A DNA stretch of 64,000 nucleotides from an uncultured cyanobacterium (GCA_963744145.1 CAVUSO010000001.1:4704001-4768000), one strand, 5' to 3'; positions 1 to 42,620 are shown, counted from the first letter of the stretch. Translations and numbers: made by a program. The notes: generated by a model not told the origin, from the sequence alone.

Positions 1-1737
1 TGGTGGCGACAAATTGATGACTCCAACTTGATAAAAAAGCTATCATCCAAATTAATAAAAACCGAGTTACGGGCTATTCGTAATGATTTAAACACTAGCG
101 ATGACAGTTTAGAAATAAAACTCGCTAATTTATTCAATCAATTGGCAGAACTGGGCGAAAACCCGTTTCTCTTGATTCTTGATGATTTTGAATGGAATCT
201 CGAACCCCGTCAAGGTCGATTTATTCTCAAGCCTGAAGTTGCGACAGTTTTGTCAGCATTAGTCTGGGCAATCCAAGAGACGGGAACTGGGCATCGGATT
301 TTGATTACCTGTCGCTATGAGTTTAATTCTGAGTTATTGGAATTTTTCTTCTCACAAGGTCTAGAATCTTTTAAAAAAGCTGAATTAACTAAAAAGCTGA
401 ATCGCCTAGAACATTTTAGTTCTGGTAAGCTCTCTGAATATCTACGCGATCGGGCGCTAAGTTTAGCCGATGGCAATCCTCGTTTACTGGAATATCTCAA
501 TGATGAAGTTTTAGGTAAACCAGATGCAGCAGCTAAATTAATCGAGCTAGAACAAAGTCCTGAACTGTGGAAAGACAAAATTATTTGGGAGGAACTGTAT
601 AAGGTTATTGATGAGCCATTACAACGGGTTATTAGCCATTGCCTAATCTACCAAATTCCTGTACCGATGATAGCTTTAGAAGGAGTTTGTGGCTCTCCCG
701 TAATAGCGTTGGAAAATCCCGTTTTTCGGCAGGGGAGAGCACGGAGCAGGGTAGAAGCTTATCACATAAGCTTATGGAACTTAAATAATTTTTACTTATC
801 ACCGCAAGTACGGGACAACCGAGTTTGTGACGCTCTTCCTAATTACCAACAACAGTTACAACGGGGTCAAAAACTGGGGCTTATTGAAATTAGTCCTGAA
901 ATTCAAGAAGAAAATCAAGTCTATTATGTCTCTCGAATTTTACCTCATATAATTCCCAATATTCGACTTTCTGAAGCACCAGAAGTTTATTCGTTGTACA
1001 AGAATGCTCATGAAATATTACATGAGTTATGGGGAAAAATTTACAATGAAAGTAAAGAAAAGTGGCAGGAGATTTTTCGGTTATTGTTTGCGGATAAAGA
1101 AAATCCAGAGCGATTCAGACAGGGATTCTTTAAAATGTTGGCAGTTCAATGCCATTTAGAAGCAGATGAAGCCTTAGAATCAGAAATGAGGAAACTAAAA
1201 GATGAGTTGTCAACGGAGAATTTTTGCGGTCAACTAGAGAACTATTTAAGTCAAAAAGAATGGAGAAAAGCTGATGAGGAAACTGCTTGGATCTTTTATC
1301 AAATGATGGTGCAGAAAGGCTACAAAAATTGGGATGAGTTATGTAAAAACTTTCCCAATGAAATCCTCAACCAGATTGACCAGCTTTGGGTTGATAACAG
1401 TAAAGGACGCTTTGGATTCAGTATTCAAAAACAAATTTGGGAAAGTGTTAATTCAGAAACACGTAAATCGGAAAAATTTGGAAACCTAATAGGTTGGAAT
1501 AAAATAGTAACAGAAAAATGCAATTGGATGTACTACAACACTTTGCTATTCTCGACTGAAGCTGCCACTGGAAGCCTTCCAGCCCTTTGTTATATGAAGG
1601 GAGAATTCATCAAGACAAATGGTGGAGTTTGGGTTGGTGGTTGGATGTTTTATTGTGTAGTTGGGTTTGGGTGGTTATGTGAGTGTGGGTGGGTTGGATT
1701 TCTTCTCTCACGCAAAGATATAAGTTATAAAATATAG
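1..1737 (+). CDS. NTPase-GUN4 domain protein, 5' part outside the window (paralog of 3563..6427, so probably also CHAT-fused)
   Basis: Frame is open from the window start. Walker B LILDDFE, GUN4-like motifs WRKADEET, IDQLWVDNSKGRFGFSIQKQIW and GSLP. Aligns with the 3' part of 3563..6427 and carries a 46-codon in-frame MITE insertion. Confidence 0.85.
   Translation, partial: WWRQIDDSNLIKKLSSKLIKTELRAIRNDLNTSDDSLEIKLANLFNQLAELGENPFLLILDDFEWNLEPRQGRFILKPEVATVLSALVWAIQETGTGHRILITCRYEFNSELLEFFFSQGLESFKKAELTKKLNRLEHFSSGKLSEYLRDRALSLADGNPRLLEYLNDEVLGKPDAAAKLIELEQSPELWKDKIIWEELYKVIDEPLQRVISHCLIYQIPVPMIALEGVCGSPVIALENPVFRQGRARSRVEAYHISLWNLNNFYLSPQVRDNRVCDALPNYQQQLQRGQKLGLIEISPEIQEENQVYYVSRILPHIIPNIRLSEAPEVYSLYKNAHEILHELWGKIYNESKEKWQEIFRLLFADKENPERFRQGFFKMLAVQCHLEADEALESEMRKLKDELSTENFCGQLENYLSQKEWRKADEETAWIFYQMMVQKGYKNWDELCKNFPNEILNQIDQLWVDNSKGRFGFSIQKQIWESVNSETRKSEKFGNLIGWNKIVTEKCNWMYYNTLLFSTEAATGSLPALCYMKGEFIKTNGGVWVGGWMFYCVVGFGWLCECGWVGFLLSRKDISYKI
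691..820. mobile_element. 130-bp MITE with ISL3-like ends, inserted in frame
   Basis: Imperfect TIRs GGCTCTCCCGTA / TACGGGACAACC. 8-bp direct repeat GAGTTTGT at 683-690 and 821-828. Absent from the paralog, which reads VVCAALPNY. Confidence 0.85.
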
Positions 1738-1790
1738 GCTTTTCAGGTATTTTGTCAAGCTAATTTTTTAGTTATTTTTTTACGAAAACA
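1701..1790 (+). other. Conserved GUN4-gene 3' element, copy 1 (TCTTCTCTCRCGCAAAG, stops in three frames, conserved downstream tract)
   Basis: Matches 6408-6494 (TCTTCTCTCRCGCAAAG ... TTTCAGG ... TTTGTCAAGC ... TTTTTACGAAAACA) although the upstream G/T tracts are unrelated. Confidence 0.8.
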
Positions 1791-1821
1791 TAAATAAGTA
1801 GGCGACTGAACAGCCACCTGG

Positions 1822-1896
1822 CATAGCAATTAGCCATCACAAATTTTTCAGCCACCTGGAGAATTTCTGAATTAGTCGATTTCCGTTCGTCCCAAG
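1822..1896 (-). pseudogene. Remnant of the 3' end of a RAYT/Y1-type tyrosine transposase gene
   Basis: High nucleotide similarity to 6659-6733 (CATAGCAATTAGCCATCACAAA..TTTTCAGC.ACCTGG.GAATTTCTGAATTAGTCG). Confidence 0.75.
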
Positions 1897-2079
1897 ATAT
1901 TAGTAACAAGTTAAGGTGATGGGTAAATTAGTTGCGATCGCACAATAGTATTAAATTTAATTCCTAACTGACAAATAGAAAGCGCGATCGCATTTTGTGG
2001 GAGAGCTGAGGTGCGATCGCGACTCAAAAAAATATTAATCAGGTATTTATTCTGTTAAAATTTTGAGATTGTTTTGAAT

Positions 2080-2502
2080 TTATAACTGAGTAGGAATAAT
2101 TAAATCTATAATCTGATTTTTATTCTGACGATAAACTAGAAAATCACGATCTAATGTTAATACACAACTGCCAGCAATTAACTCGGTCATTCTCACTAAA
2201 CAAGCATCGGCTAAAGACATTGGTACATTCTGATAACGTTGCAGCAGTTGTCTAATCGTTTCGCTGTCATCATTCAGTTGAAAAGGAATTTGAATAATTT
2301 TTCTACTGATTAAATTTATCACTGCGTCCTGACCTTTATAGACATCTTGCAACAGAAAACAAGTTTCTGTTATTACCCCTTCGCAAGTCAATAAATGTGG
2401 TTCAATTATTTTCCATTGTTCAATTGCCCAGGAATGTAGATTTTCTTTTTTATTAATAAATGCAACTAATACTCCTGTATCTAGTAACACTTTTTTTCTC
2501 AT
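2080..2502 (-). CDS. vapC: VapC/PIN-domain toxin
   Basis: N-terminal VLLDTGVLVA plus MSLADACLV and LTLDRDF PIN motifs. Overlaps the upstream small gene by 4 nt. Confidence 0.9.
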   Translation of the reverse strand: MRKKVLLDTGVLVAFINKKENLHSWAIEQWKIIEPHLLTCEGVITETCFLLQDVYKGQDAVINLISRKIIQIPFQLNDDSETIRQLLQRYQNVPMSLADACLVRMTELIAGSCVLTLDRDFLVYRQNKNQIIDLIIPTQL

Positions 2503-2753
2503 TTTTTACCCATTCCTTTTAGATATTCTTTATTCGTCCCTAAATCACCAGGGCCAAAATCAACAGATCCAGCAAATTCTTGGGCTGCTTCATAAGCAGA
2601 GATGGGTTGTTTTTCCTTAACTTGCTGTTTCTCCTGCTTTTGGGTTTTATATCGCAAAAACTCAATAAATTCCAAAACAGTATCCTGCTGTTCTATTGTT
2701 AGCATTTCAAGATAATCTAAAATTACATCTTTTTTATTGATCCCCATACTCAT
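2499..2753 (-). CDS. Putative antitoxin (DUF2281-like) of the VapBC pair
   Basis: 84 aa with VLEFIEFLRYK and C-terminal GPGDLGTNKEYLKG, directly upstream of the PIN gene. Confidence 0.75.
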   Translation of the reverse strand: MSMGINKKDVILDYLEMLTIEQQDTVLEFIEFLRYKTQKQEKQQVKEKQPISAYEAAQEFAGSVDFGPGDLGTNKEYLKGMGKK

Positions 2754-2770
2754 AGTTATATTCTCCTAAA

Positions 2771-3094
2771 TTAAATTAAATCGGGATCGATTCCTTGCGA
2801 TCGCAAATAAGCAGCCAATCGTTCTTTCTGTTGTTGTTCTCGATCAGCTCGTACCGTTTCAGCATCAGTCCGTTCGGTCGGATCAGTTTCACGCCAGTAT
2901 ATCCCACTATCTTGTCCGATCGCATATTGACCATCTGGATGAAGATTTTGGAGTGTAGTTGACCGGGAGTCAGTCAGCAAGATACATTGGGCATGTTCTT
3001 GAAAATTTTTCACGAAGGTGCCGTCAGATTCAGGTAATTGAGTATGATTGGGAAAAGGAGGGGGTAAGATGGTGGGGTCAAGACTTTGGACCAT
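2771..3094 (-). pseudogene. Uma2-family endonuclease with a large internal deletion
   Basis: The N-terminus (PNHTQLPESDGTFVKNFQEH...GQDSGIYWR) joins directly to the C-terminal coiled tail (ERLAAYLRSQGIDPD). The nuclease core present in 7356..8123 is missing. Confidence 0.8.
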
Positions 3095-3232
3095 AGTTCT
3101 GAGCGATCCACAACAGGAATGACGAGATGCTTGATTTAAGTATAGCAATTTGAGATTGAGCAGTTTGTTCAGGTTTAATACTTACTACTAAAAAATTAAT
3201 CCAAACAGCGAATATATAGAGGAGATCCACCA

Positions 3233-3553
3233 GTGAAAATTGAAATTGATGGTCAAGATGCGGTTAGCGCTGCTGAGGAATTGCTGAGAATTGAAGGGCT
3301 TGAAGGTAGTTGTAAAATAGTTGATAAAGTGGAGCGAGAAGGAATATTATTAGCTACGATCGCTACAATCGTAGGGATTACCAGTGGTGCTGTGACCATT
3401 GCTAAAGAAATATATGAGTGGTATCAGAAATACCAGAAATCTCAAGGGGCAAAGGCAAAAATTGAGAAAGTGCTAATTATTGGGTCTAATAATCGTCGTT
3501 TGTTGCTCAAGGATGCGACGGTAGAGCAGATTCAGAAGATTCTAGAAGATTAG
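3233..3553 (+). CDS. Small protein with one Gly/Ala-rich hydrophobic helix upstream of a CHAT protease (EACC1-like partner)
   Basis: SD AGGAG before a GTG start. Segment ILLATIATIVGITSGAVTIA preceded by VEREG. Lies 9 nt before the CHAT gene. The EACC1 resemblance is inferred. Confidence 0.6.
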   Translation: MKIEIDGQDAVSAAEELLRIEGLEGSCKIVDKVEREGILLATIATIVGITSGAVTIAKEIYEWYQKYQKSQGAKAKIEKVLIIGSNNRRLLLKDATVEQIQKILED

Positions 3554-3562
3554 GCAGGAACC

Positions 3563-6427
3563 ATGAAAATCCTCCATATTAGTTTAACTGAACAGGGTAA
3601 GGATTATGCTAGTTTGCGTTACTTTTGGAATCATCCTGCTGATTACAAAGAACACAGATTGTCTCTGGCTGAAATTAAAGATTTAGGCAATCAAGCAGAG
3701 ACTGATTACTATACTCGTATTCCTGTGGATTATGCGATTACTGGACAAGCACTCTACAACTGGTTAGATCAGAGCGATCGCGTGTTAGCCAATGCCTTAA
3801 ATCAGCCCCGTCAGGAAGGATTAGTAATTGCGATCGCGACGGATAAAGGAATGGCAAAGTTGCCTTGGGAATTATTGCATGATGGGAAGTGTTTCTTAGT
3901 AGAGAAAAGACCTGCTATTATTCCGGTGCGGTGGGTGCCTAATGGTCAACCGACGATCACGATCGCTAATTCTCCGCAAAATCGACATCTTAATCTGTTA
4001 TTTATGGCCACTTCTCCTTTAGGAGTTGAACCTGAATTAGATTATGAAGCAGAGGAAGGGAAAATTTTAAAGGCGACCCAGCGTACTCCAGTGAATTTGA
4101 GAGTAGAAGAAAGTGGCTCTTTAAGTGAATTGAGTTATCTGGTGCGGAAACAGGAAAAAGACCCAAACCATCCTGATGTTAGCTATTTTGATGTTTTTCA
4201 TTTAACAGGTCATGCAACTTATCAGGAGGGAAAACCCTGCTTTTTGACTGAAGACGAATATGGCAACCGAGTTGATAGTATTACCACAGAAATACGCGAT
4301 GCGCTGACATCTCCCTTACCGCCTTTAATTTTCCTCTCTGGTTGTCGAACTGGTTATTATTCTGAGGAAACAGTTCCCTCAATGGCAGAAGAATTATTAA
4401 AGATGGGAGGAACAGCAATTTTAGGATGGGGGGAAAGAGTCCGTGATACTGATGCAACAGCAGCTGCGTGTAAATTATATTGGCATTTGTCTCAGGGGGA
4501 AGCGGTTACAGATGCTCTATTTTCTACCTATCAAGCCTTGATTCGACAACAAGCACACGATTGGCATAAATTACGGTTATATGTGGCAAATACCTTACCC
4601 CAGATGTTAGTAACTCCTGTAAACACAAGAGGACGAACACAATTGCCTAAACCGAAATTTAGGGATAGTGATCAGCAGTTAAAAGTGGCAAGGGGTGAAG
4701 ATTTTGTTGGTCGTCGCCGTCAGCTCCAGAACTGTTTGCGAATACTAAAGATAGATAATGACAAAGTAGGAGTATTAATTCATGGCATGGGGGGATTGGG
4801 AAAAAGTAGCATTGCCATTCGACTGTCGGATCGGCTATATGAACATGAAAAAGTTCTGTGGCGACAACAAATTGATGCCTCAAGCTTGATAAAAGAGCTA
4901 TCTGATAAATTAATTAAACCAACGTTACGCGATATTCGTGATGATTTAAACAGCAATGACAGATTATATTTTAAGATAGCTAATCTATTCAATCAATTAG
5001 CAGAACTGGGTGAGAAACCGTTTCTCTTGATTCTTGATGAATTTGAATTGAATCTAGAACCCCGTCAAGATCGATACATTCTCAAACCTGAAGTTGCTAC
5101 AGTTTTAGAAGCATTAGTTAGGGCAATCCAAGATACGGGAACTCAAAATCGAATTATTATTACCTGTCGCTATAAGTTTGATTTTAATTTATTGAATTCT
5201 TTTTTCTCTCAAGGTCTAGAAGCTTTTCAAAAAGCTGAATTAACTAAAAAACTGAACCGCTTAGAACATTTTAGTTCTGATCAGCTCTCTCAAGAGCTAC
5301 GCGATCAATCGCTAAGTTTAGCCGATGGCAATCCTCGTTTACTGGAATATCTCAATGATGAAGTTTTAGGTAAACCAGATGCAGCAGCTAAATTAACGGA
5401 ACTAGAACAAAGTCCTGAACAGTGGAAAAACAAAATTATTTGGCCAGACTTGTATAAGCTTATTGATGAGCCTTTACAACAGGTTCTTAGTCATTGCTTA
5501 ATCTATGAAATTCCTGTACCAATGGAAGCTTTAGAAGTAGTTTGTGCTGCTCTTCCTAATTACCAACAGCAATTACATCGAGGGCGTGAACTGGGATTCA
5601 TTGAAATCAGTCCTGACGTTCAAGCAGAAAATCAAGTCTTTCGTTTCTCTCGAATTTTACCTCATATTATTCCTAATATCCGACTTCCTGAAGCACCTGA
5701 AGTTTATTCTTTGTACAAGAAAGCTTATGAAAAGTTACATCAGTTGTGGGGAAACAAACAAAATGAAAGTCCGGAAAAGTGGCAGGAAATTTTTCGGTTA
5801 TTGTTTGCCGATCAAGAAAATCCAGAACGATTCAGACAGGGATTCTATGAGATGTTGGCAGTTCAATATAATTCAGAAGCAGATCAAGCCTTAGAATCAG
5901 ACCTGAGACAACTGAAAAATGAATTATCAACAGATAATCTTTGCCGTCAATTAGAGGATTATTTAAGGCAACAAGAATGGAGAAAAGCTGACGAGGAAAC
6001 TGCCTGGATTTTTTATCAAGTGATGGTGCAGCAAGACTATGAAGATTGGTCCGAGCTATGCAGAAACTTTCCCTGCGAAACCCTCAAGCAGATAGATCAG
6101 CTTTGGGTTGATAACAGTCAAGGACGTTTTGGATTCAGCATTCAAAAGCAAATCTGGGAAAGTGTGGGCGGACATCCTGATGCAAAATATGAAATATATG
6201 AAAAATTTTGTGATAAAGTAGAATGGAGAAAAGAGGGCGAATGGTTGCTTTATAGTAACCTTACTTTTAATAATAACACTACTCCAGAGGGCTACCTCCC
6301 AGTCCTACCGCTCGCTCGCTTTCGCGAGTTTGGGGGTTGGTTGGGATTTATGGGGATGGGATACAAGGGGGATTGGAGATTTGTGAGGGTTGTTGTTGGG
6401 GTGGGTCTCTTCTCTCGCGCAAAGTAA
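3563..6427 (+). CDS. CHAT protease - STAND/AAA NTPase - GUN4 domain protein
   Basis: CHAT LPWELLHD with His in HLTGHA and Cys in LSGCRT. Walker A GMGGLGKS, Walker B LILDEFE. C-terminal GUN4-like motifs (WRKADEET, GRFGFSIQKQIW, GYLP). Confidence 0.9.
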   Translation: MKILHISLTEQGKDYASLRYFWNHPADYKEHRLSLAEIKDLGNQAETDYYTRIPVDYAITGQALYNWLDQSDRVLANALNQPRQEGLVIAIATDKGMAKLPWELLHDGKCFLVEKRPAIIPVRWVPNGQPTITIANSPQNRHLNLLFMATSPLGVEPELDYEAEEGKILKATQRTPVNLRVEESGSLSELSYLVRKQEKDPNHPDVSYFDVFHLTGHATYQEGKPCFLTEDEYGNRVDSITTEIRDALTSPLPPLIFLSGCRTGYYSEETVPSMAEELLKMGGTAILGWGERVRDTDATAAACKLYWHLSQGEAVTDALFSTYQALIRQQAHDWHKLRLYVANTLPQMLVTPVNTRGRTQLPKPKFRDSDQQLKVARGEDFVGRRRQLQNCLRILKIDNDKVGVLIHGMGGLGKSSIAIRLSDRLYEHEKVLWRQQIDASSLIKELSDKLIKPTLRDIRDDLNSNDRLYFKIANLFNQLAELGEKPFLLILDEFELNLEPRQDRYILKPEVATVLEALVRAIQDTGTQNRIIITCRYKFDFNLLNSFFSQGLEAFQKAELTKKLNRLEHFSSDQLSQELRDQSLSLADGNPRLLEYLNDEVLGKPDAAAKLTELEQSPEQWKNKIIWPDLYKLIDEPLQQVLSHCLIYEIPVPMEALEVVCAALPNYQQQLHRGRELGFIEISPDVQAENQVFRFSRILPHIIPNIRLPEAPEVYSLYKKAYEKLHQLWGNKQNESPEKWQEIFRLLFADQENPERFRQGFYEMLAVQYNSEADQALESDLRQLKNELSTDNLCRQLEDYLRQQEWRKADEETAWIFYQVMVQQDYEDWSELCRNFPCETLKQIDQLWVDNSQGRFGFSIQKQIWESVGGHPDAKYEIYEKFCDKVEWRKEGEWLLYSNLTFNNNTTPEGYLPVLPLARFREFGGWLGFMGMGYKGDWRFVRVVVGVGLFSRAK

Positions 6428-6494
6428 TCTGTAAGATATAACAATTTCAGGCCATTTGTCAAGCTTAATTTTGGTACTAATTTTTACGAAAACA
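6408..6494 (+). other. Conserved GUN4-gene 3' element, copy 2
   Basis: Homologous to 1701-1790. Stop codons occur in all three frames within 6425-6441. Confidence 0.8.
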
Positions 6495-6620
6495 TCGGCT
6501 TTCCGCCAATTCGATACCTGGCACTGTTCCGTCTGTCCGTTTTGGCTGTCTGTCTGTTGTTGGAATATATATTTTAGACAGAATAAAGACAGAATGGCCA
6601 GGTGACCAGAACAACACAAA

Positions 6621-6953
6621 CTAAGAATCATTGAAAAACTGTGCAGCGACCTTGGGGTCATAGCAATTAGCCATCACAAACTTTTCAGCTACCTGGCGAA
6701 TTTCTGAATTAGTCGGTTCCCATTCATCCCAAGGCAATTTCATCTGTCCAGGAATACGTCTTTTCGTTTCCTTTGCACTCAAAACCTTGGGCAGTAATTT
6801 ACTTCCCCAGTGACAACGGTTTTCCGGTTTGGGTTGAGGTTTATATTTCTTACAGAACTTGCGATATTTCTCGGCACATTCATCCAAACTTTTCCCCAGA
6901 GCCAAAAAAGCAGGATGCCACTGAGTTAGTCCATCATCGCTCAATCGGTCATA
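6621..6953 (-). pseudogene. C-terminal part of a cyanobacterial RAYT/IS200-like (Y1) tyrosine transposase, 5' truncated by a MITE
   Basis: YDRLSDDGLTQWHPAFLALG...CAEKYRKFCKKYKP...VAEKFVMANCYDP resembles, from recollection, the C-terminus of cyanobacterial Y1_Tnp proteins. The frame runs into the MITE end at 6954. The HUH core is absent. Confidence 0.65.
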
Positions 6954-7307
6954 TACAGCAGATTCGGTCGTTGATGAAGTACAGTAAGATTTGGCATGAA
7001 TGGCGATCGGTTAAAGTCGCTTGTGAGTGATCTGTGTTGGTTGGGCAGGTTTATGATAGTTATCTGTTTGCAGCAGAATTGATTGGTGAACCTGCCCCTA
7101 CAAATCCCGGTTGATTGTGATCATAAATTCATTCACCTGCCCCTACAAATCCTGTTAATCTTGTAATCCTCTAATCCTGATCGATTTTTTGGTGAATCTC
7201 TGTAGGGATGGGTCTACTGAAATTTTTGCTATTTACCCACTAATCATCACGCACCCACCCCCACCCACAGATCAATCTGCTCAATGTATCTTCATAGTCA
7301 ATTGGTA
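6954..7307. mobile_element. Chimeric MITE carrying REP-like repeats
   Basis: Left end TACAGCAGATTC...TGATGAAGTACA resembles the ends of 16246-16572. Right end TGTATCTTCAT..AATTGGTA resembles the end of 44635-44931. Internal GGTGAACCTGCCCCTAC repeats. Confidence 0.75.
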
Positions 7308-7355
7308 TAAGTAAAATAAAAATAGACACTCCCATCAGGACAAGTGTGAACAACC

Positions 7356-8123
7356 ATGACTTCTGTGATCAAAACGACATCAAGGTTAAGACCAGATTTA
7401 CCCGACCATACTGAATTACCTGACTCCGACGATAACTTCGTGAAAAATTTTCAGGAACATCCTCAAAGTATTCTCCTCACCGATTCGATTCAACCAGTAT
7501 TAGACCGTTTACATCCAGATGGACAATATTGTATCGGACAGGACAGTGGTATTTATTGGCGATTAACTGAACCACCTCTAGATGGAGCTGAAGCACCGGA
7601 TTGGTTTTATGTCCCCGATGTCCCCCGGACACTGAATGGACAACTACGACGATCTTATGTGATCTGGCAAGAATTAACTCCCCCAGCGATCGCGATCGAA
7701 TTTGTCTCCGGAAATGGGAAAGAAGAAAGAGATCCTACTCCCTTAAAGGGAAAATTTTGGGTCTATGAACAAGGAATTAAAATCCCCTATTATGCGATCT
7801 ATGAAGTCCAGAAAGCGAGGGTGGAAGTCTATCAACTCCAAGACGATCGCTATGTCAAATTAAGTCCAAATTTCCAGGGACGTTATCCGATTCACTTGAT
7901 GGGAGTAGAATTAGGAATCTGGTCCGGAAGATATCAAACCATGCAACTACCCTGGTTAAGATGGTGGGATGAGCAAGGAAACTTGTTATTAACGGGAAGT
8001 GAAAGAGCCGAAATCGAGCAACGGGAAAAACAACTAGCCCAACAACAACTTGAACAGGAACGACAACGAGTTGAACGTTTAGCGGCTCAATTACGCAGTT
8101 TAGGGATTGAACCGGAATTATAG
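7356..8123 (+). CDS. Uma2-family (PD-(D/E)XK) endonuclease
   Basis: EAPDWFYVP, AIEFVSGNG, KFWVYEQ and LRWWD motifs with a coiled-coil tail. Confidence 0.9.
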   Translation: MTSVIKTTSRLRPDLPDHTELPDSDDNFVKNFQEHPQSILLTDSIQPVLDRLHPDGQYCIGQDSGIYWRLTEPPLDGAEAPDWFYVPDVPRTLNGQLRRSYVIWQELTPPAIAIEFVSGNGKEERDPTPLKGKFWVYEQGIKIPYYAIYEVQKARVEVYQLQDDRYVKLSPNFQGRYPIHLMGVELGIWSGRYQTMQLPWLRWWDEQGNLLLTGSERAEIEQREKQLAQQQLEQERQRVERLAAQLRSLGIEPEL

Positions 8124-8178
8124 TTGACTCGGTGGAGCCGATCGGATCTTATCTAATCAGCAATGATCATAAAACCTG

Positions 8179-8206
8179 GTAGGGGCATATTGCAATATGC
8201 CCCTAC
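8179..8206. repeat. GTAG-type REP palindrome between convergent genes (possible bidirectional terminator)
   Basis: Perfect palindrome GTAGGGGCATATTGCAATATGCCCCTAC. Confidence 0.7.
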
Positions 8207-8216
8207 TGTCAAAAAA

Positions 8217-9101
8217 TTATTTCCGCTTAATCCATACCTTTAACGATTCAATTCGCAAGGACTGTCCCCTTGTTCCGCAATATTGACCATTGGAACACAC
8301 CGCATAGTCCCCTACATTCTGGATATGAGCAGTGTAAAAAACATCATATTTAGATGCTTCTGGACCAGTTAGCTGAATTGAAAAACCTTCAATTCGTCGT
8401 TCTTGATTTCTCGTCCCAGCAAACTTTCCTTCTTCTAACCATGCTGTATCCCCAATTCCTTGAATATGGGCTTGATATCTCAGACTTAATCCTGGCACAG
8501 GTGGATGGATATTGATCTGAAATCCTTCTAAACGGAGGGATTGTCCACGAGTGCCCACCATTTCATTATCTTTGAATTCCCGATCGCCCAAACTCTGGAT
8601 ATTAGCCAAAATTTTTAGAGATACGTCTGAATTTCCTACTGTACTCAAACCTGTGGTAGTGAATCCAGGAGAAACTCCAGTCACAGCACTTTTTGGGTCA
8701 GGCTCATCAAATCTCGGTAGAATAATCACTTCTGGAGTTGCATCCGGGGACGTGGGTTGTCCAAAAATAAAGATATCCGATTGTGGTGTAGGTGCCTTGA
8801 CAGGTGCTGATATTTGATTCACTGGTGGATTTTGGGCGTCAGTCACCTGATTTACTAACAACTCTAAATCTTTCAGGGCAGAAATTTCCCCAGCTTTTGG
8901 GGTCAATGCTGTTAATGTTTGCAAATGTAACTGGGTAAATTCGGTTTGGTAATTTGCCAGTTCCGCTATTAAATTTCCTGATGGTGGGATACCTTTTGCT
9001 TGAAGTTCTTTACCTGCTTGGGATAGACGCTCTCCCAAACTTGAAAATTTTTCTTTAAGTAGGCTTAGTTGTTGGGACAAATCTTTATGGGCTTGGTTCA
9101 T
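8217..9101 (-). CDS. Coiled-coil protein with C-terminal clostridial hydrophobic-W (ChW)-like repeats
   Basis: Three repeats of the AHIQGIGD..W..G...GTRGQSLRxE type. Confidence 0.75.
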   Translation of the reverse strand: MNQAHKDLSQQLSLLKEKFSSLGERLSQAGKELQAKGIPPSGNLIAELANYQTEFTQLHLQTLTALTPKAGEISALKDLELLVNQVTDAQNPPVNQISAPVKAPTPQSDIFIFGQPTSPDATPEVIILPRFDEPDPKSAVTGVSPGFTTTGLSTVGNSDVSLKILANIQSLGDREFKDNEMVGTRGQSLRLEGFQINIHPPVPGLSLRYQAHIQGIGDTAWLEEGKFAGTRNQERRIEGFSIQLTGPEASKYDVFYTAHIQNVGDYAVCSNGQYCGTRGQSLRIESLKVWIKRK

Positions 9102-9996: not shown

Positions 9997-11547
9997 ATGA
10001 TGACACCAACAGGAAAAGTATATTTGGTGGGTGCTGGTCCGGGAGATGTTGCGTATCTGACTGTGCGATCGCAACAACTTCTGAGTCAAGCTCAAGTTTT
10101 AGTCTATGATGCACTGGTAGATCGTAATTTATTGGGTTTAGTCCCTCAAAATTGTCACCTGTTTAATGTGGGTAAACGTGGTGGTAAACCTTCTTTAGCA
10201 CAAACTAAAATTAATCATCTCCTGGTAGAACAATGTCAAAAAGGTTACCAGGTAGTACGTCTGAAAAGTGGTGATCCATTTATTTTTGGTCGCACTACTA
10301 CAGAAATTCAAGCTTTAATTGCAGCTAATTGTGAATTTGAAGTCATCCCGGGAATTTCGACCGCACTAGCTGCACCTTTATTAGCTGGAATTCCTTTAAC
10401 TGATCCGGTTTTAAGTCGTTGTTTTGCTGTTGCTACTGCTCATAATCCAGAAGAATTGGATTGGGAAATTTTAGCAAATATTGAGACTTTGGTAATTTTG
10501 ATGGGAGGAGGAAATTTACCAGAAATTATCCATCAGTTACATAAACATGGGCGATCGCTTTCTTGTCCAATTGCGATTATACGCTGGGTTGGTCATCCTC
10601 AACAACAGATTTGGACTGGTACTTTAGGAAATATTATTACCCAAACTCAAAATGAGTCTCTTTCTCCCTGTGTCATTGCGATCGGTGAAGTCGTAAATTT
10701 AAGAACGTATTTACAAATTCCACCCACTCCGGAGTTAGTTCTTATGAATCAAAAAAATTCTCTTTCCCATCCTCTACTGAACAAAACTATTTTAGTAACT
10801 CGTGCGATTAGTCAATCCCATGATTTTCGCGATCTGCTCGAATCCCAAGGAGCAAAAGTAATTGAAATGCCCACTTTAGAAATCGGTCCTCCCTCTAGTT
10901 GGGTAGCTTTAGATCATGGGATTAAACAAATTCATACTTTTAACTGGTTAATCTTAACTTCTACTAATGGGGTAGATTATTTTTTTGACAGATTAAGGGT
11001 TTTAAAGAAAGATATTCGCGCTTTAGCTGGATTAAAAATTGCTGTAGTTGGTCAGAAGACCGCAGCAAGTCTCAAACAGTATCAGATTCAACCAGATTTT
11101 ATTCCTCCCAATTTTGTAGCTGATGACTTAGTCGCAAATTTTCCTGAAGATGTAGCTGGGAAAAAAATTATGTTTCCTCGAGTCGAAACCGGAGGAAGGG
11201 AAGTATTAGTAAAGGAATTAGTGGAGCGAGGAGCGGAAGTAGTTGAAATTCCTGCTTATGAATCGCGCTGTCCCCAAGCAATATCCCCTCTAGCATTATC
11301 AGCATTACAGGAACATCAGGTAGATGTAGTTACTTTTGCTAGTTCTAAAACTGTCCAATATTTTGTGAATCTGATTAAAGCTCACGACGGTATATCGTTA
11401 GAAAATGTTTTAATCGCGTCTATTGGTCCACAAACTTCCCACACCTGTCAAACATTATTTGGAAAAGTAGATATAGAAGCAGAAGAATTTACTTTAGAAG
11501 GGTTAACTAACGCCATCATCAATTTTTTTACTTGCGCGAGTAAATAA
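9997..11547 (+). CDS. cobA/hemD: Uroporphyrinogen-III C-methyltransferase / uroporphyrinogen-III synthase fusion
   Basis: VYLVGAGPGD and RLKSGDPFIFGR. HemD half has ILVTRA, LILTSTNGV, TFASSKTV and SIGPQTS. Confidence 0.95.
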   Translation: MMTPTGKVYLVGAGPGDVAYLTVRSQQLLSQAQVLVYDALVDRNLLGLVPQNCHLFNVGKRGGKPSLAQTKINHLLVEQCQKGYQVVRLKSGDPFIFGRTTTEIQALIAANCEFEVIPGISTALAAPLLAGIPLTDPVLSRCFAVATAHNPEELDWEILANIETLVILMGGGNLPEIIHQLHKHGRSLSCPIAIIRWVGHPQQQIWTGTLGNIITQTQNESLSPCVIAIGEVVNLRTYLQIPPTPELVLMNQKNSLSHPLLNKTILVTRAISQSHDFRDLLESQGAKVIEMPTLEIGPPSSWVALDHGIKQIHTFNWLILTSTNGVDYFFDRLRVLKKDIRALAGLKIAVVGQKTAASLKQYQIQPDFIPPNFVADDLVANFPEDVAGKKIMFPRVETGGREVLVKELVERGAEVVEIPAYESRCPQAISPLALSALQEHQVDVVTFASSKTVQYFVNLIKAHDGISLENVLIASIGPQTSHTCQTLFGKVDIEAEEFTLEGLTNAIINFFTCASK

Positions 11548-17241: not shown

Positions 17242-20200
17242 TCAAGTCTCCTCTAACCAAGTTTGAATCGCAGATAATAAATTGGCTTGATGAGGTGGAA
17301 AGCCTTTTAACGGTGCTTCTAGGGGTTCATTGGTTAGCCAGGCGATCGCCAGGGTATCAGTGAGTTGGTAACAAAAGTCGATCACTTCTGGGGTGGGATG
17401 TTCGCAATGGGTAAGCAGGAGGTTGAGTTTTGGTAAGTTGAAGGTTAATTTGCATTGATCAATGCTATAACATAGGTCAGCGGGGGTGGCAACTCTGGGA
17501 TACATTTGCTCAGGAAATGCTTGTTTCCAGATGCGTCTGCACAGGATTTGGGCAATTTCGCCTTCTCTGGTTTCCGTTGCTAGAATGTCGGCATTGATAC
17601 AAACAATTGGCAGATTTTGCAATTTGATGGAAAGTTCTATCTGTTGATTGTCTAGATTATCAACAGTTGAATTATTTCCCACTGGAATCTGTTCGGTAGT
17701 TTCTGGATGGTAGATAGTGGTGGGATGATGCCATGCTTGATAAAATTGGGGATAGGGAAGTTTCATAGCACAGTCCCAAACAACTTTGTAGCATTGATCA
17801 AATCTGTCAAAGTTACTTTTGTAAACTTCATTACTGAGACAGTCTTTTAAAGCTGAGACAACCCCTGCATATTGTTCAGGTGTGGTTAATATTTTCTCCA
17901 AACTGGATACTACTTGCGAACGAGTAGATTCATCCTCAGTGGTGGCCAGAAGTTTGACTAAAGTGTCGATCAGACCACGGGTATTTTTACTGTCAGTAGT
18001 TGACAGATGTTTGACTAAAGCGGTGAATACTTTCGGATGATGTTTGACTAAAATGGTGAGCGCTTCAAGATTTCGAGCAATTTTCTCAAAAATCTTTGCC
18101 GCTAAACGACGGGTATTTTCACTGTCAGTGATTGACAGATATTTGACTAAAGTAGTGAGCGCTTCCGGACGTTTGACTAAAAAAGCAGTGAGCGCTTCCG
18201 GATTTCGAGCAATTTTCTCAAAAATCTCTATCATTTTCCCCAAAATCTCTGCCGCTTGCCGACGGGTCAATTCATTTTCATTGGTTTTCAGAAGTTTAAC
18301 TAAAGCGGTGAGCGATTCCGGATTTCCTGGAACAATTTTATCCAAACTACCTGCCGCTTTCAAACGGGTTAATACATTTTCACTGGTTTTTAGAATTTCG
18401 ACTAAAGCCGCGATCGCTTCCAGATTTCCTGGAGCAATTTTCCCCAAACTATCTGCCGCTTGCCAACGGATATCTTCATCGTCAGTGGTTGCCAGAATTC
18501 TGACTAAAGCGGTGATCACTGCCTGATTTCCTGGATCAATTTCCTCCAATATTTTTGCCGTTTGCCAACGGGTAAATTCATTGTCAGTAGTTGCCAGAAT
18601 TCTCACTAAAGTGGAGATCGCTTCCAGATTTCCCGGAGCAATTTTCCCCAAACTATCTGCCGCTTGTAAACGGATCAATTCATTTTCACTGTTTTTCAGA
18701 AGTTCGACTAAAGCCGCGATCGCTTCCGGATTTCCTGGCGCAATTTTCTCCAAACTATCTGCCGCTTGCTGACGGGTAGATTTATTGTTAGTGGTTGCCA
18801 GAATTCTGACTAAAGCAGCGATCGCTTCCAGATTTCCTGGAGCAATTTTCCCCAAACTATCTGCCGCTTGCCAACGGATATCTTCATCGTCACTGTTTTT
18901 CAGAAGTTCGACTAAAGCAGTGATCACATCCAGATTTCCTGGAGCAATTTTCCCTAAACTAGATGCTGCTATCTGACAAATAACTTTATTTTCATTGGTT
19001 TTCAGAAGTTCGACTAAAGCAGCGATCACCTTCAGATTTTCTGGAGCAATTTTCCCCAAAATATCTGCCGCTAGACCACAGGTAATAAATTCATTTTTAT
19101 TGGTTTTCAGAAGTTTGACTAAAGCGGTGATCGCTTCCGGATTTCCTGGAGCAATTTGCTTCAAACTATATGCCGCTTGCAAACGACAACGAATAAATGA
19201 TGTATCATTATTGGTTGCCAGAATTCTGACTAAAGCGGCGATCGCTTCCAGATTGCCTAGAGCGATTTCAGCCAAATGCTCTACCGCCTCACTAAAATTA
19301 TCTGGGCAATGTTCGAGGATTTCACTAAGTTTTGTAATAAGTTCTGTAATGGCTAGTTGTCGAATCGTTTCTGGTATTATCTCTCTTGCCTCTGCTTCAA
19401 TTCGATAAAAATAAGTTCTCCATTCCCTTTTCTCAATATTAAAATCACCAAATGCCCATTTAATTACCTGTTTAACAATTTGTGAAGCCAGGGAACAATT
19501 TTTAAATTCATTAATTGCTGCTGCTGCTATAAAATAGGGTTGATATTCATAAAAATCTCTGCATCCATCATCAAAATTTACTAACGCCTGAATCAACCTC
19601 TCCTTTTCCTTATTTTCAATATTCTCACGCCCCACCCACAACAAAATGACATGCTTCCATTGCGGCTGAAAAATCCGATATTCTTTCCCATCAATCGGAA
19701 AATCATCATGATCTTTAGGTAAAAAATAATCCCAATCATCCACTGCCAATGCTGCAAAATACTCCTGAAATGTGGCATGATAAAAGGCATACACTGGCTC
19801 CCTAAGATTTTCGGCTGCTACCCCCACCTCATTTAACCAACCCAACCTTAATGCCTGATCTAAGAGCGAATTCTCATTCCGGTTACCCAAATATTGACAA
19901 ATAAACTGATGGGTTAACCGAAACCTTGTTCCCTCTCCATCTAGGGACGCTTTTGCTAACTTTCCTAAACCTGCATTCAAACTATCTATTTCCGTTTTTG
20001 TCATAGGAAACTCTTTTTTCTTCCAATCATACATATAGTCCACAAAACTCTGATACAGCTCGGCAGTTGTATCGGGTAAACTTCCCTCTTGCCAAATCGA
20101 TGATAATAAGGTTAACCGGAGGGGATTGCGGCATAAATCCTTAATCCGTTCTTTCCCTGGGGTTTGCAGTGCTTCCCACAAAGATTCACCTAACTTCATT

Positions 20201-21363
20201 TCTGGTTTTTCCCCAGACAAACTCCGAAACCACCTTTGGTTAAACTGCTGCATTTGTTCATCCTGAAATGGTTGAGTCAGATAGGTTTGAAAACCCTGTA
20301 ACTGGGATGGGTTACCTTGCCACAGATTCAATCGACAGGAGATGATTAATTGAGATTGTGTCACCCAACCTTGCAACGATAAAGCATCTCTAGCTGTATC
20401 GTTCATTTCATCCAATCCATCCAAGAGTAACCAGACTCTACCCTCCTTAAATTTTTGCTCCCAGTCTGCCTTAATTTCTTCGGTGGGATTTATAAAAGCA
20501 TCTTCCAGCCAAATTTCTTGTAAATAGTCCCCCAAGCGTTTATTACCCAAATTTCCGAGGGATATCCAAATCACTAAATCATCGGTTTCTTCTAATAACC
20601 AAAATGCTAATTTCTGTAATAAAGTAGTTTTTCCGGCTCCGGGTTCCCCACTAATAACAAGATTTTTTTGTTTCCCTTGGCTAAGTACTTCCTGGAGAAA
20701 CTCACCGTAGGTAAACCGTTTTTCCACTTCCTGTCGATCATAAAATTCCGAACCGCGCTCTGGAGCGATATCTTGTTTGTGTGCTTCATGGTGATGGGGC
20801 TTCAGTTTAACCAGTGCTAAATCAATAAATAATTCTTCTTCAACTAAATTCCGATTAAACTGGGCTTTTAATAAACTATTACTGCTTAACTGTTTATGAC
20901 TTTCCAACATCCGTAGACAAACATCTTGCCACTCCTCAAGTTTTAGTTGGCGATTTTCTCCTATGTTGATATCAATTGATGGCAAATTTATTTCGTTTTC
21001 AGATTGCCATTGCGGATATTTTTCGTTCCAAAGCCAATTAAAAATATCTCGCCAGGCTTCTTGTCCTTTCGGTGGTCTTGCTTTCTTTCTTTTTTGGCTT
21101 CCTGGGTTTATTGTTTGCGAAGAAATCGGACAATCTTGATTGTCATAAAATTTTTGACAAATGGTCTCTACGTGGTATGTAATACTTTGTTGTATATGCA
21201 ATACTTTTTTTTCTTCTTCAACAATACTTTTTAGGAGAGTCATATTTTCCTTATGTTCATTCTCTTTATCGAACCTTAGCAGAAACATTTTTTCTTTTTT
21301 TTCTGTAATGCCATATTGTCTAGCAATTGTTTTGAGAAAAACCTGCTCTCGTGACTGTTTCAT
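17242..21363 (-). CDS. NACHT NTPase with a HEAT-repeat array and a C-terminal alpha/beta (NCAB1-like) domain; NLR-like
   Basis: Walker A GEPGAGKTT, Walker B LLLDGLDE, NPLRL and FYHATFQEYFAA. About 34-aa repeats (AADSLGKIAPGNxEAIxALVxLL). ATG 21363 preferred over the ORF-track start at 21423. Confidence 0.9.
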   Translation of the reverse strand: MKQSREQVFLKTIARQYGITEKKEKMFLLRFDKENEHKENMTLLKSIVEEEKKVLHIQQSITYHVETICQKFYDNQDCPISSQTINPGSQKRKKARPPKGQEAWRDIFNWLWNEKYPQWQSENEINLPSIDINIGENRQLKLEEWQDVCLRMLESHKQLSSNSLLKAQFNRNLVEEELFIDLALVKLKPHHHEAHKQDIAPERGSEFYDRQEVEKRFTYGEFLQEVLSQGKQKNLVISGEPGAGKTTLLQKLAFWLLEETDDLVIWISLGNLGNKRLGDYLQEIWLEDAFINPTEEIKADWEQKFKEGRVWLLLDGLDEMNDTARDALSLQGWVTQSQLIISCRLNLWQGNPSQLQGFQTYLTQPFQDEQMQQFNQRWFRSLSGEKPEMKLGESLWEALQTPGKERIKDLCRNPLRLTLLSSIWQEGSLPDTTAELYQSFVDYMYDWKKKEFPMTKTEIDSLNAGLGKLAKASLDGEGTRFRLTHQFICQYLGNRNENSLLDQALRLGWLNEVGVAAENLREPVYAFYHATFQEYFAALAVDDWDYFLPKDHDDFPIDGKEYRIFQPQWKHVILLWVGRENIENKEKERLIQALVNFDDGCRDFYEYQPYFIAAAAINEFKNCSLASQIVKQVIKWAFGDFNIEKREWRTYFYRIEAEAREIIPETIRQLAITELITKLSEILEHCPDNFSEAVEHLAEIALGNLEAIAALVRILATNNDTSFIRCRLQAAYSLKQIAPGNPEAITALVKLLKTNKNEFITCGLAADILGKIAPENLKVIAALVELLKTNENKVICQIAASSLGKIAPGNLDVITALVELLKNSDDEDIRWQAADSLGKIAPGNLEAIAALVRILATTNNKSTRQQAADSLEKIAPGNPEAIAALVELLKNSENELIRLQAADSLGKIAPGNLEAISTLVRILATTDNEFTRWQTAKILEEIDPGNQAVITALVRILATTDDEDIRWQAADSLGKIAPGNLEAIAALVEILKTSENVLTRLKAAGSLDKIVPGNPESLTALVKLLKTNENELTRRQAAEILGKMIEIFEKIARNPEALTAFLVKRPEALTTLVKYLSITDSENTRRLAAKIFEKIARNLEALTILVKHHPKVFTALVKHLSTTDSKNTRGLIDTLVKLLATTEDESTRSQVVSSLEKILTTPEQYAGVVSALKDCLSNEVYKSNFDRFDQCYKVVWDCAMKLPYPQFYQAWHHPTTIYHPETTEQIPVGNNSTVDNLDNQQIELSIKLQNLPIVCINADILATETREGEIAQILCRRIWKQAFPEQMYPRVATPADLCYSIDQCKLTFNLPKLNLLLTHCEHPTPEVIDFCYQLTDTLAIAWLTNEPLEAPLKGFPPHQANLLSAIQTWLEET

Positions 21364-21443
21364 ATTCCCTTCACTGCTTTTTACCTTAGCACTGATTGTA
21401 ATTAAAGTGGAAGAAAATGTCAAGAGGAATCCATAAAAATCAT

Positions 21444-30540: not shown

Positions 30541-31233
30541 ATGGATGATTTAGATAAACGGCTAGCTAATTTAATTACCCAACTACAGCAAGCTCCACCA
30601 CAAACGAGTAAATGGCGATCGGCTATGAATTATTTACTGCGGGAAATTCAGCAACTCCCTGGATTAGTCAAATCTTCTCACCCAGACTATCCGACTGCAT
30701 TAAACCTTACCTTAGTATGGGTCAGCCATAATATAGCTAATTTTCAGCTACGTTCTTCTTCGGTTTCAAAGAGTTTAGAAATCTGGATTAACGGCTATCA
30801 TCGTTGGCGAATTAAAGATTTGTATGCTCCAGATAAAGATGCTGCAATTAGCTTAGATGCTCCGATTCAAGAAGAAGCTGGTGAAAGAACTCTACTTGAA
30901 CAAATACCTGCTTTTACACTTAGCGGTTTGGATGGTTTAATTGAAAATAACCAAAAAGAAACGACTCAACGTATCGGGTTAGAATTAGAGGTATACATCG
31001 AACAAGATCCAGAAGAAAACCTTAAAAATAGCTATCCTCGCTCGTACCCTGAATGTAACTGTCAATTTCTCAGCAAAAGACGAATCCTAAAAGAACCCCC
31101 AGACAAATTTGCAGATGTCGCAAGAGAACTCAATATTAAATACACTACAGTTAATTCTCATTGGCAGAGGAAATGCCAACCATTGCTACAAGAAATCGCT
31201 AAAAATCTGGGATATCAACAGGAGCAACAATAA
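30541..31233 (+). CDS. Sigma-70/ECF-like (HetZ-related) regulator
   Basis: WINGYHRWRIKD (region-2-like), ISLDAPI and a C-terminal HTH (FADVARELNIKYTTVNSHWQRKC). Paralog of 47640..48338. Confidence 0.7.
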   Translation: MDDLDKRLANLITQLQQAPPQTSKWRSAMNYLLREIQQLPGLVKSSHPDYPTALNLTLVWVSHNIANFQLRSSSVSKSLEIWINGYHRWRIKDLYAPDKDAAISLDAPIQEEAGERTLLEQIPAFTLSGLDGLIENNQKETTQRIGLELEVYIEQDPEENLKNSYPRSYPECNCQFLSKRRILKEPPDKFADVARELNIKYTTVNSHWQRKCQPLLQEIAKNLGYQQEQQ

Positions 31234-31994
31234 TGAACAATACAGAAACACCTTTACTAAGAGTAATGCTAGAACCAGAAGCACACAAAATTGCGCGGCA
31301 ATTGGCGGCTGTGCAAGCAACAGTTAATAAAGGAAAGCGAGTTTACTTGAATACTTTAGCTGTTTACGCAGTCTCTACCTATTTAAAATGGTTGCAAATT
31401 AAAACCGATCTGAATAATTCAGATAGCTTTGATCCAGTAAAAACCGCTTTATCCAATGTAGCTGATTTAGTGATTCCTGGTATGGGTAAACTAGAGTGTT
31501 GTCCGGTTTTACCAGGTGAAAAAACCATCTCTTTATCATCAGATGTAATAGAAAATCCCATCGGTTATGTTGCCGTCCAATTTACAGAGAATTTAGACTC
31601 CGTACAACTATTGGGATTTGCGCCAAGTCAAGATCCGTTAAATATTCCACAATTGTTAGCATTAACAGAACTTATGCCTATTGATGCTCTGAGCGAACAA
31701 ATTACTCGCTTGGAAAATGCGATCGCATTTCTAGAAACAGATGACCAAGTAGCAGTGCAGGTGCGTTCTCAGATAGAAACCCAATCTTGGAGTGATATTA
31801 TTAATCAGTTAGAACGCATTTACCGAACTTGTGATGAGTATGAATGGCGGTATGCAGGAGGAGAAATATTAGCTGGAGATGCGATCGCTGTTGATGCTAC
31901 TCGCGAAACAATTCAACAAAATGATAGCGAATTACAAGATTTAGCCGAAATACTAATGGAAAAATTAGCAAAAATTTGGAGAGATATTGTGTAG
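31233..31994 (+). CDS. DUF1822-family protein
   Basis: KRVYLNTLAVYAV, ADLVIPGMGKLECCPV and IGYVAVQ...LLGF. Translationally coupled to the upstream gene (TAATG). Confidence 0.85.
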   Translation: MNNTETPLLRVMLEPEAHKIARQLAAVQATVNKGKRVYLNTLAVYAVSTYLKWLQIKTDLNNSDSFDPVKTALSNVADLVIPGMGKLECCPVLPGEKTISLSSDVIENPIGYVAVQFTENLDSVQLLGFAPSQDPLNIPQLLALTELMPIDALSEQITRLENAIAFLETDDQVAVQVRSQIETQSWSDIINQLERIYRTCDEYEWRYAGGEILAGDAIAVDATRETIQQNDSELQDLAEILMEKLAKIWRDIV

Positions 31995-42342: not shown

Positions 42343-42620
42343 AATTCTCACCATCCTATACTTGCGATCAGCTCGTGATACTTGTTCCAGATTTTGTCTA
42401 TCATACCATTTAAACGACGCAAATACGTTAAATTTTCCGGCTATTCGATCGCTAGATCGTCGTATGTTGTGCCAGGTTTACCCTATTAACTAAATTTTGA
42501 TGGGGATAATATCAAGATTTGTTAACTTATCGCCAAAATTGAGGAATATTTATAAGATTTTGTAAAAATGAATACAGAAAATCTTAGATTTATATTTTCC
42601 CAATGCCACGGAGAAGTTAT

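Follow-up and report, generated by a model that had tools for sequence, protein, structure and literature searches.

Analysis of a 64,000-nucleotide (nt) stretch of DNA from an uncultured cyanobacterium (GCA_963744145.1 CAVUSO010000001.1:4704001-4768000, one strand; the whole stretch is hereafter the window) and of related loci revealed a conserved DNA element of ~92 nt that has stop codons in all three frames and overlaps the 3′ ends of genes whose products terminate in a GUN4 domain. At the level of sequence, the element is tightly paired with a conserved gene for a Y1 transposase-like protein, and the tract that adjoins it has evidently been rewritten in place. The Y1 neighbour, which is convergent with the GUN4 gene across the element, is new here. 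The best explanation is that the element is the cis-acting site of the neighbouring Y1 enzyme, whose cuts rewrite the tract, and we regard this, on balance, as probable.

The window contains two paralogous genes (Table 1), and both of their products pass the gathering score of the GUN4 family (PF05419), with the domain at the C-terminus. In copy 1, the GUN4 match spans residues 410-535 (Pfam E = 1.9e-25; 90.1 bits against a cut-off of 29.2), and the protein has a full-length twin of 1005 residues in the protein database (P0070). In copy 2, GUN4 spans residues 795-916 (E = 7e-30; 104.5 bits, cut-off 29.2) and accompanies matches to CHAT (E = 5.8e-18) and AAA_16 (E = 3.8e-9). The gene ends share a 17-mer, TCTTCTCTCRCGCAAAG, at 1701-1717 and 6408-6424, with no third site in the window at up to three mismatches. 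By itself, the window gives only modest evidence for a shared motif, because 0.26 matches of the 17-mer are expected in the shuffled window and 2 of 100 shuffles reach two matches. A preliminary description of this DNA had observed that the two paralogs read the motif in different frames, that the tracts preceding it differ by 13 nt, which is no multiple of 3, and that the unused frames stop quickly. These observations hold: gene 1 ends in ..FLLSRKDISYKI and gene 2 in ..LFSRAK, the distances from the GUN4 end to the motif start are 117 and 104 nt, and the unused frames close, exactly as noted, after FSHAKI and SSLTQRYKL in copy 1 and after LLSRKVICKI and SSLAQSNL in copy 2. The DNA identity of the copies is 85% upstream, 44% in the second half of the GUN4 domain and 39% in the tract; it is 72% over the motif and ~90 nt downstream, and 79% in a stretch on the minus strand farther on. 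Over 6290-6405, which includes the 12 nt of the GYLP codons, the base composition of the copy 2 tract is A 0.13, C 0.16, G 0.41 and T 0.30.

Loci for comparison came from species-representative genomes scanned with an alignment of three Y1 proteins; the best 80 of 494 relatives were taken, and every named organism among these 80 is a cyanobacterium. Alignment of the intergenic regions shows a conserved unit of ~92 nt, with the motif at its gene-side end and the Y1 stop codon at its other end; in many cyanobacteria this unit spans the gap between a gene with a C-terminal GUN4 domain and a convergent Y1 gene. The conserved ending placed at 6408-6441 in the preliminary description is thereby upheld, while its extent is not: the conserved unit reaches further, and in the window it survives in two degenerate copies. 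The consensus starts TCTCTTCTCTCGC[A/G]TCGAGACTTGTAAAcTGTAACATaTAAGG, and stop codons stand at element positions 25, 32 and 39 in 56, 56 and 50 of 62 loci, respectively. These three stops are 7 nt apart, one per frame, in the tandem heptads TGTAAAC TGTAACA TATAAGG, and all three frames are closed within 60 nt in 60 of the 62 loci. When a profile of the element was searched in 91 sources (90 loci and the window), it matched 79, as a rule once per locus; extra copies adjoin extra GUN4 genes in loci L031 and L035, and two copies stand in tandem in L023. The two window motifs rank first and second among the profile matches in the window. A search of 1-9000 against Rfam gave two sub-threshold chance matches only, none at the motif.

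A plasmid collection contains the element in six Nostoc records. It lies at or beside a Y1 gene or remnant in all five of the records that were cross-checked, and in five of the six the match overlaps an annotated protein whose gene has, or turned out to have, a GUN4 domain; the sixth, NC_010632.1, has no annotated feature under the match. One plasmid gene, L090 599-3532 (Nostoc sp. HK-01 plasmid1), is annotated as a WD-40 repeat protein; Pfam identifies AAA_35 and GUN4 domains, and the gene ends in the element.

The reading frames in which GUN4 genes enter the motif were compared in two sets. A search with the last 175 residues of the copy 2 protein gave 260 relatives, of which 120 were analysed; these come from many genera of cyanobacteria and join a GUN4 domain to kinase, caspase, CHAT-NTPase, TPR or vWA regions. 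Regular expressions applied to the last 30 residues assigned their 98 distinct tails to LFSR (30), LLSR (24) and SSLA (23) classes, the very endings that the preliminary description had named; 21 tails fall in no class, some of them still holding variants of the motif. The class sequences, ..LFSRVETCKL, ..SLLSRRDL and ..SSLASRLVKCNI, are overlapping readings of one DNA consensus. In the second set, 67 loci with both a GUN4 gene and the element, 56 genes read the motif, 19 as LFSR, 14 as LLSR and 23 as SSLA (chi-square against equal use, p = 0.34), and the other 11 end ahead of it, with tract and motif retained downstream. The near-equal use of the three frames and the retention of the motif beyond early stops place the conservation at the nucleic-acid level, as had been proposed; the tabulation of GUN4 C-termini and their DNA that had been recommended as a check revealed no restriction to one frame. 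We conclude from these comparisons that the shared ending is a conserved DNA stretch and no protein motif. Since all three frames are used across the gene family, the different frames of the window copies are its normal state and no mutation peculiar to one copy.

The idea that these endings form a functional C-terminal peptide, one window copy being a frameshift mutant or a sequencing error, draws on the conserved look of the tails within each frame class, of which ..LFSRVETCKL and ..SSLASRLVKCNI are examples. It is refuted by the near-equal frame use in two independent sets (67 loci and 98 tails), by the genes that stop ahead of a retained motif and by the overlap of all three peptide classes on a single DNA consensus, and we give it very little credence. 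A 15-residue 'protein', MGVSSLASRLVNCNI, appears among the smallest cyanobacterial proteins in PMC9529120; it looks like an annotation artefact, the element read in one frame.

The enzyme recognition site envisaged in the preliminary description has a concrete candidate enzyme in the convergent Y1/HUH transposase-like gene that follows the element. In two plasmid loci, of Nostoc flagelliforme (L003) and Cylindrospermopsis (L005), a gene annotated as 'transposase', 250-256 codons long, is convergent with the GUN4 gene and lies 66 and 89 nt, respectively, past its stop codon. Across the locus set, a convergent GUN4 frame ends within 1 kb of the Y1 gene in 69 of the 75 informative loci, those of the 80 with at least 700 nt beyond the Y1 gene. 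Pfam places GUN4 at the C-terminus in 68 of the 69 partner frames scanned, two more partners having been excluded for internal stops. The Y1 frames are intact in 75 of 80 copies, and an alignment of 45 sequences shows no variation at His59, His61 or Tyr121. The proteins are about 250 residues long, with a C-terminal extension, and bear the signature NHVH / WE / YIHxNP; intact relatives match Pfam Y1_Tnp (PF01797) with E values of 8e-19 and 1e-17. In the AlphaFold model of a Y1 protein, residues 1-125 are predicted well and the C-terminal extension poorly (mean predicted local distance difference test score, pLDDT, 66). Foldseek finds this model closest to 4ER8, the Escherichia coli transposase associated with repetitive extragenic palindromic (REP) sequences in complex with a REP hairpin, and next to the IS200, IS608 and ISDra2 transposases (2F4F, 2XQC/2VJV series); sequence searches of the PDB with one Y1 protein and with a profile gave no match. 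No third gene recurs in the 80 Y1 neighbourhoods, where nothing upstream of the Y1 gene is conserved and no second element end was found.

The N-terminal regions of the partners include AAA_35, TIR_2, protein kinase, caspase (Peptidase_C14), NACHT, CHAT, EAD1 and KAP NTPase domains, and by these predicted domains the architectures are immune, NLR-like or conflict-type. Where a genome contains more than one copy, the Y1 gene, the element and the GUN4 domain are common to the copies and the N-terminal host parts differ. Ten of 11 such within-genome pairs are 72-88% identical; the exception is the pair L060/L062 of Xenococcus sp. PCC 7305, whose Y1 genes are 99.75% identical from 41 nt ahead of the start codon. 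Both contigs end 19 nt past the Y1 gene, and this is the sole sign of recent copying in the set. Taken over all 80 loci as a mark of population heterogeneity, contig ends are not asymmetric: five lie less than 700 nt after the gene and four before it.

The stretch between the GUN4 domain and the element was analysed in 54 loci in which its left edge is defined. These tracts are 15-195 nt long (median 59), their lengths divide 15/23/16 over the three residues modulo 3, and their composition is G 0.37, T 0.31, A 0.17 and C 0.16. The G/T bias climbs over the last 60 nt ahead of the element, the tracts of L023, L044 and L073 are nearly pure G/T, and 5-mers consisting of G-runs are ~2.5-fold enriched over the tract's own base composition. 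The G/T-rich sequence continues beyond early stops (L053 and L033 are examples); since the bias thus persists in untranslated stretches, it is not a requirement at the protein level. In all 17 pairs of loci whose flanks are at least 80% identical on both sides, the tracts are only 19-57% identical. In L034/L036, L049/L057 and L021/L061, synteny on both sides extends for 3.6 to about 10 kb, and L010 and L015 match on both sides up to the tract edge; in each of these pairs the tracts are unrelated and differ in length. These alignments indicate that the tract has been replaced wholesale between syntenic loci with flanks about 87-97% identical. At the protein level, tract identity is below 0.5 in 10 of 10 transposase-linked pairs. 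No template for the tract was found within 6 kb on either side, bar local duplications of the GUN4 3′ end; 5 of the 54 loci have tandem duplications that comprise the tract and the GUN4 3′ end.

A second tandem or partial copy of the element or motif lies in or by the tract in L023 (6775-6944), L045, L056 and L019, and the protein P0014, which ends in ..SLFSRRKTFISLFSRKDL, is a further example; these cases are anecdotal and no more frequent than in shuffled sequence. Partial motif copies were considered as the footprint of a staggered cut and the idea was dropped: they are present in 2 of 52 tracts, where 1.2 would be expected, and 361 of 1000 shuffles do as well.

Judged by their sequences, both window copies are relics of the system, because their transposase-like genes are truncated and the element is eroded, with the small hairpin lost. 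Neither transposase remnant retains the catalytic HUH/Tyr half, and that at 6633-6968 has no Pfam match. In the copy 2 element, the small hairpin, TCTCG-NNN-CGAGA, has lost its second arm to a 5-nt deletion. The additional stretch at 6496-6624 may be a further small insertion; it contains repeats of the GTCTGTC type and a stray fragment that resembles the C-terminal end of the transposase (cgatacctggcac) and is split from the remnant.

Table 1. Features of the window, numbered from its first nucleotide
Feature	Position	Strand	Description
Paralog 1 (copy 1)	1-1737	+	NTPase-GUN4 protein; 5′ end cut by the window; ends ..GFLLSRKDISYKI before the stop
Paralog 2 (copy 2)	3563-6427	+	CHAT - AAA_16 NTPase - GUN4, 954 residues; ends ..GLFSRAK; stop TAA 6425-6427
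Variable tract, copy 1	1582-1698	+	117 nt, G/T-rich; from GUN4 end GSLP (1570-1581) to motif start 1699
Variable tract, copy 2	6302-6405	+	104 nt, G/T-rich; from GUN4 end GYLP (6290-6301) to motif start 6406
Degenerate element, copy 1	1699-1757	+	Profile positions 3-60, E 0.12 in window; frame class B
Degenerate element, copy 2	6406-6463	+	Profile positions 2-62, E 0.0019; frame class A; contains 6408-6441
Y1 remnant 1	6633-6968; open frame 6621-6944	-	Residues 141-253, C-terminal half; BLASTP 57% identity, E 2e-44, to the 256-residue protein of L003
Y1 remnant 2	1823-1906	-	Residues 216-244; tblastn E 1e-3 (L003), 5e-4 (L005)
Stretch after copy 2, absent after copy 1	6496-6624		129 nt between element and remnant (alignment; by-eye comparison with L003/L004)
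NLR-like conflict genes	17242-21423, 32138-36952, 49182-52949, 53386-57582, 58148-60151

In the explanation that we favour, the Y1 enzyme would act on the element as single-stranded DNA and would cleave one strand repeatedly at the gene-side edge of the element; imprecise repair or filler synthesis after the cuts would then rewrite the tract again and again, and the triple stop would allow the host gene to tolerate any junction. The tracts may be inserts, as the preliminary description supposed, or the outcome of recurrent breakage and repair. The G/T bias could stem from a biased filler polymerase or, alternatively, from deamination of C and A where one strand is frequently unpaired. On the strand that carries the transposase sense, the order is gene, small hairpin, ~7 nt and edge of conservation, an arrangement that we take to resemble the right end of IS608, where the cleavage site lies a few bases 3′ of the hairpin. 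In L014, L050, L051, L064 and L070, and in the GUN4-less loci L025 and L042, conservation starts only at position 11-22, around ..GAGACTTGTAAA, so that there may be a second, inner edge of variability beside the small hairpin.

Several points weigh against this explanation. That the Y1 enzyme binds or cuts the element and drives the turnover is something we infer. The plasmid loci L002 and L006 retain the first ~40 nt of the motif and have no transposase gene beyond it, and in a general set of GUN4 proteins of unknown transposase status, 33 of 38 pairs, many of them non-independent, have tracts less than 50% identical; the dependence of the turnover on the enzyme is thus something we can only infer. 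Conversely, the tract is conserved in some close pairs (P0029/P0035 and P0040/P0044), and three of the five conserved general pairs lack the motif. The tracts of L003, L007, L032 and L037 are among those that are not G/T-rich. The edge of the element is not always sharp, the profile match starting at position 11-17 in at least 6 of 67 loci. Folding with DNA parameters predicted no consensus structure for the element on either strand, and its sole hairpin has a stem of 4-5 bp; IS608 and REP hairpins are longer. Finally, the best 80 of the 494 relatives are the top-scoring ones, a selection in which intact transposase genes are over-represented.

Two other explanations compete with the proposal that a resident Y1 enzyme cuts the element. 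The Y1 gene and the 92-nt element might be a homing or one-ended mobile element, an IS200-like end that inserts after GUN4, with the tract as the junction filler of each insertion and the triple stop limiting harm to the host gene. The single conserved end, located 3′ of the transposase-like gene, the nearly identical Xenococcus copies whose contigs break just past the gene, the abundance of decayed remnants (in the window, L004, L008 and L009) and the sharing of Y1 gene, element and GUN4 domain by within-genome copies that have no N-terminal host parts in common all fit such an element. Against it, no conserved second end exists, and the within-genome pairs other than that from Xenococcus are, at only 72-88% identity, old. 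Moreover, L034/L036, L049/L057 and L021/L061 keep the Y1 gene and the far flank syntenic with the tract alone replaced, which favours change in place over re-insertion, and we consider insertion an unlikely account. The 92 nt could instead serve both convergent genes as a common 3′ signal, for instance as terminator, antisense promoter or protein-binding site, with the G/T tract drifting by slippage and instability of the G-quadruplex type and the Y1 gene a conserved neighbour that does not act. A sigma-70-like site (TTGACA, 18-nt spacer, TATCTT) on the minus strand at 6462-6433 is directed into the motif, and the tandem duplications in 5 of 54 loci, the enrichment of G-run 5-mers and the turnover in proteins of unknown transposase status also speak for this reading; however, scans for promoters and terminators did no better than in shuffled sequence, where promoter-like matches are as frequent, L017 has no terminator-like hairpin, and there is no predicted consensus fold. 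Slippage does not explain unrelated replacement tracts between loci about 90-97% identical over the aligned region, and the strict pairing with a Y1 enzyme gene that has no other explanation is left without a reason, so that a regulatory signal beside unstable DNA also seems to us improbable.

The tracts might also be swapped among GUN4 paralogs by homologous recombination, the GUN4 3′ end and the element serving as arms. Genomes contain several such genes, and the divergence of the window copies has a mosaic-like appearance, beginning ~130 nt before the tract, with 44% identity (1449-1570 against 6166-6287) as opposed to 85% upstream. None of the 54 tracts matches the tract of another locus, however, only GUN4-end duplications being found, and a G/T-rich composition indifferent to stops is unlike that of shuffled coding cassettes; we rate such exchange as a rather remote prospect. 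Rewriting from a template repeat by a reverse transcriptase, as in diversity-generating retroelements (DGRs), recommends itself because cyanobacterial DGRs diversify the C-terminal domains of proteins with the same N-terminal kinds, according to PMC7517822 and PMC7159879. Yet there is no reverse transcriptase among the window open reading frames scanned and no further recurring gene family in the 80 neighbourhoods, the length of the tract varies from 15 to 195 nt, and nothing that could serve as its template was found in the 6 kb to either side; the chance that these tracts are DGR targets is, in our estimate, negligible.

Of known systems, the pairing of a low-copy, apparently domesticated Y1 HUH gene with a conserved non-coding element recalls the RAYT (TnpA-REP) systems, whose E. 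coli hairpin complex 4ER8 is the best structural match to the predicted Y1 model. The within-genome Y1 copies have diverged, as PMC6006769 (Quentin et al. 2018) reports for class 2, and by eye the Y1 signature and length, and the absence of a nearby REP, agree with the entry for TnpA-Y1 subclass 2.1 (RAYT group 1, 'TIRYT') in a table of that article, a subclass to which the Y1 proteins may belong. The article reports no REP-like partner or cognate DNA site for subclass 2.1, and 'GUN4' occurs 0 times in its main text. Unlike RAYT genes, the Y1 gene is not flanked by REP palindromes, the element is not dispersed within the 12-kb loci but overlaps the 3′ end of a protein gene and adjoins a hypervariable tract, and the Y1 proteins score 70.7 and 68 bits with the NCBIfam RAYT model NF047646 (REP_Tyr_transpos), under its cut-off of 80. 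A strict RAYT-REP system is therefore ruled out, flanking or dispersed palindromes not having been found in the loci. The enzyme fold, as modelled, is also that of the IS200/IS605 family (IS608, ISDra2); the Y1 element differs in having no left end, a hairpin of 4-5 bp, copies that are not near-identical save in one genome, and a gene ~100 codons longer than those of the matched IS200-type transposases (125-165 residues). An ordinary insertion sequence is likewise ruled out, since nothing is conserved upstream and 10 of the 11 within-genome pairs are no closer than stated above.

Two other kinds of system share the hypervariability. As in DGRs, variation is concentrated at the extreme 3′ end of the same multidomain signalling and conflict genes (kinase, caspase, CHAT, TIR) and is bounded on the 3′ side by a conserved DNA signal, but tract length and frame vary here, whereas DGRs introduce adenine-specific substitutions at constant length. 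As in contingency loci, a low-complexity tract lies within the gene and changes in its length shift the frame; unlike those of contingency loci, the tracts are built of neither homopolymers nor short tandem units and change by replacement, not by growing or shrinking, and the shifts do not switch the GUN4 gene off, because the triple stop follows. A literature search, which left out most subscription journals, found no printed description of the element, the tract or the GUN4-Y1 pairing.

Other features of the window were noted. Compared with copy 2, copy 1 has at 691-820 an in-frame insertion of 46 codons (GSPVIALENPVF...RDNRVCD) bounded by 21-nt inverted repeats (691-711 and 800-820, 76% complementary); it looks like a small insertion resembling a transposable element of the miniature inverted-repeat kind (MITE) that left the frame open. 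Between the paralogs, on the minus strand at 2080-2753, a PIN-domain gene (2080-2502) overlaps a small upstream gene (2499-2753), and this pair has the predicted layout of a toxin-antitoxin system. NLR-like conflict genes are dense in the window, with one NACHT-HEAT-NCAB1 gene, three TPR-CHAT paralogs and one NB-ARC-TPR gene; DUF1822 genes (31233-31994 and 48338-49132) precede two of the TPR-CHAT paralogs. Putative endonuclease genes of the Uma2 family lie at 7356-8123, just past the transposase remnant, and at 41785-42354. A fused tetrapyrrole methylase/uroporphyrinogen-III synthase (HemD) gene occupies 9997-11547, with ~3.5 kb between it and the GUN4-domain genes; porphyrins are ligands of GUN4 domains, but this closeness is probably a coincidence.

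The tract may diversify the C-terminus of a sensor, or it may be tolerated scar tissue. More tentatively, we entertain a diversity-generating system free of reverse transcriptase, in which a domesticated Y1 enzyme would repeatedly cut a fixed 3′ site of immune-type sensor genes, the C-terminal tract would be written anew with G/T-rich filler of any length and the triple stop would have evolved to keep each result translatable; this is possible, though we would not presume it. For annotation, the endings LFSRVETCKL, SLLSRRDL and SSLASRLVKCNI should be taken as readings of one DNA element and not as peptide signals, and homology should not be assumed for the last 10-60 residues of GUN4 fusion proteins. 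Three stops 7 nt apart point to selection for the tolerance of frame-random junctions. The pairing described here supplies a concrete partner, one DNA element and one gene family, for a large class of domesticated Y1 transposases, similar to RAYT group 1 / subclass 2.1, that has been without a function, and it hints at a new way in which prokaryotic NLR-like and TIR/caspase conflict proteins might become hypervariable, at the same position as that used by cyanobacterial DGRs.

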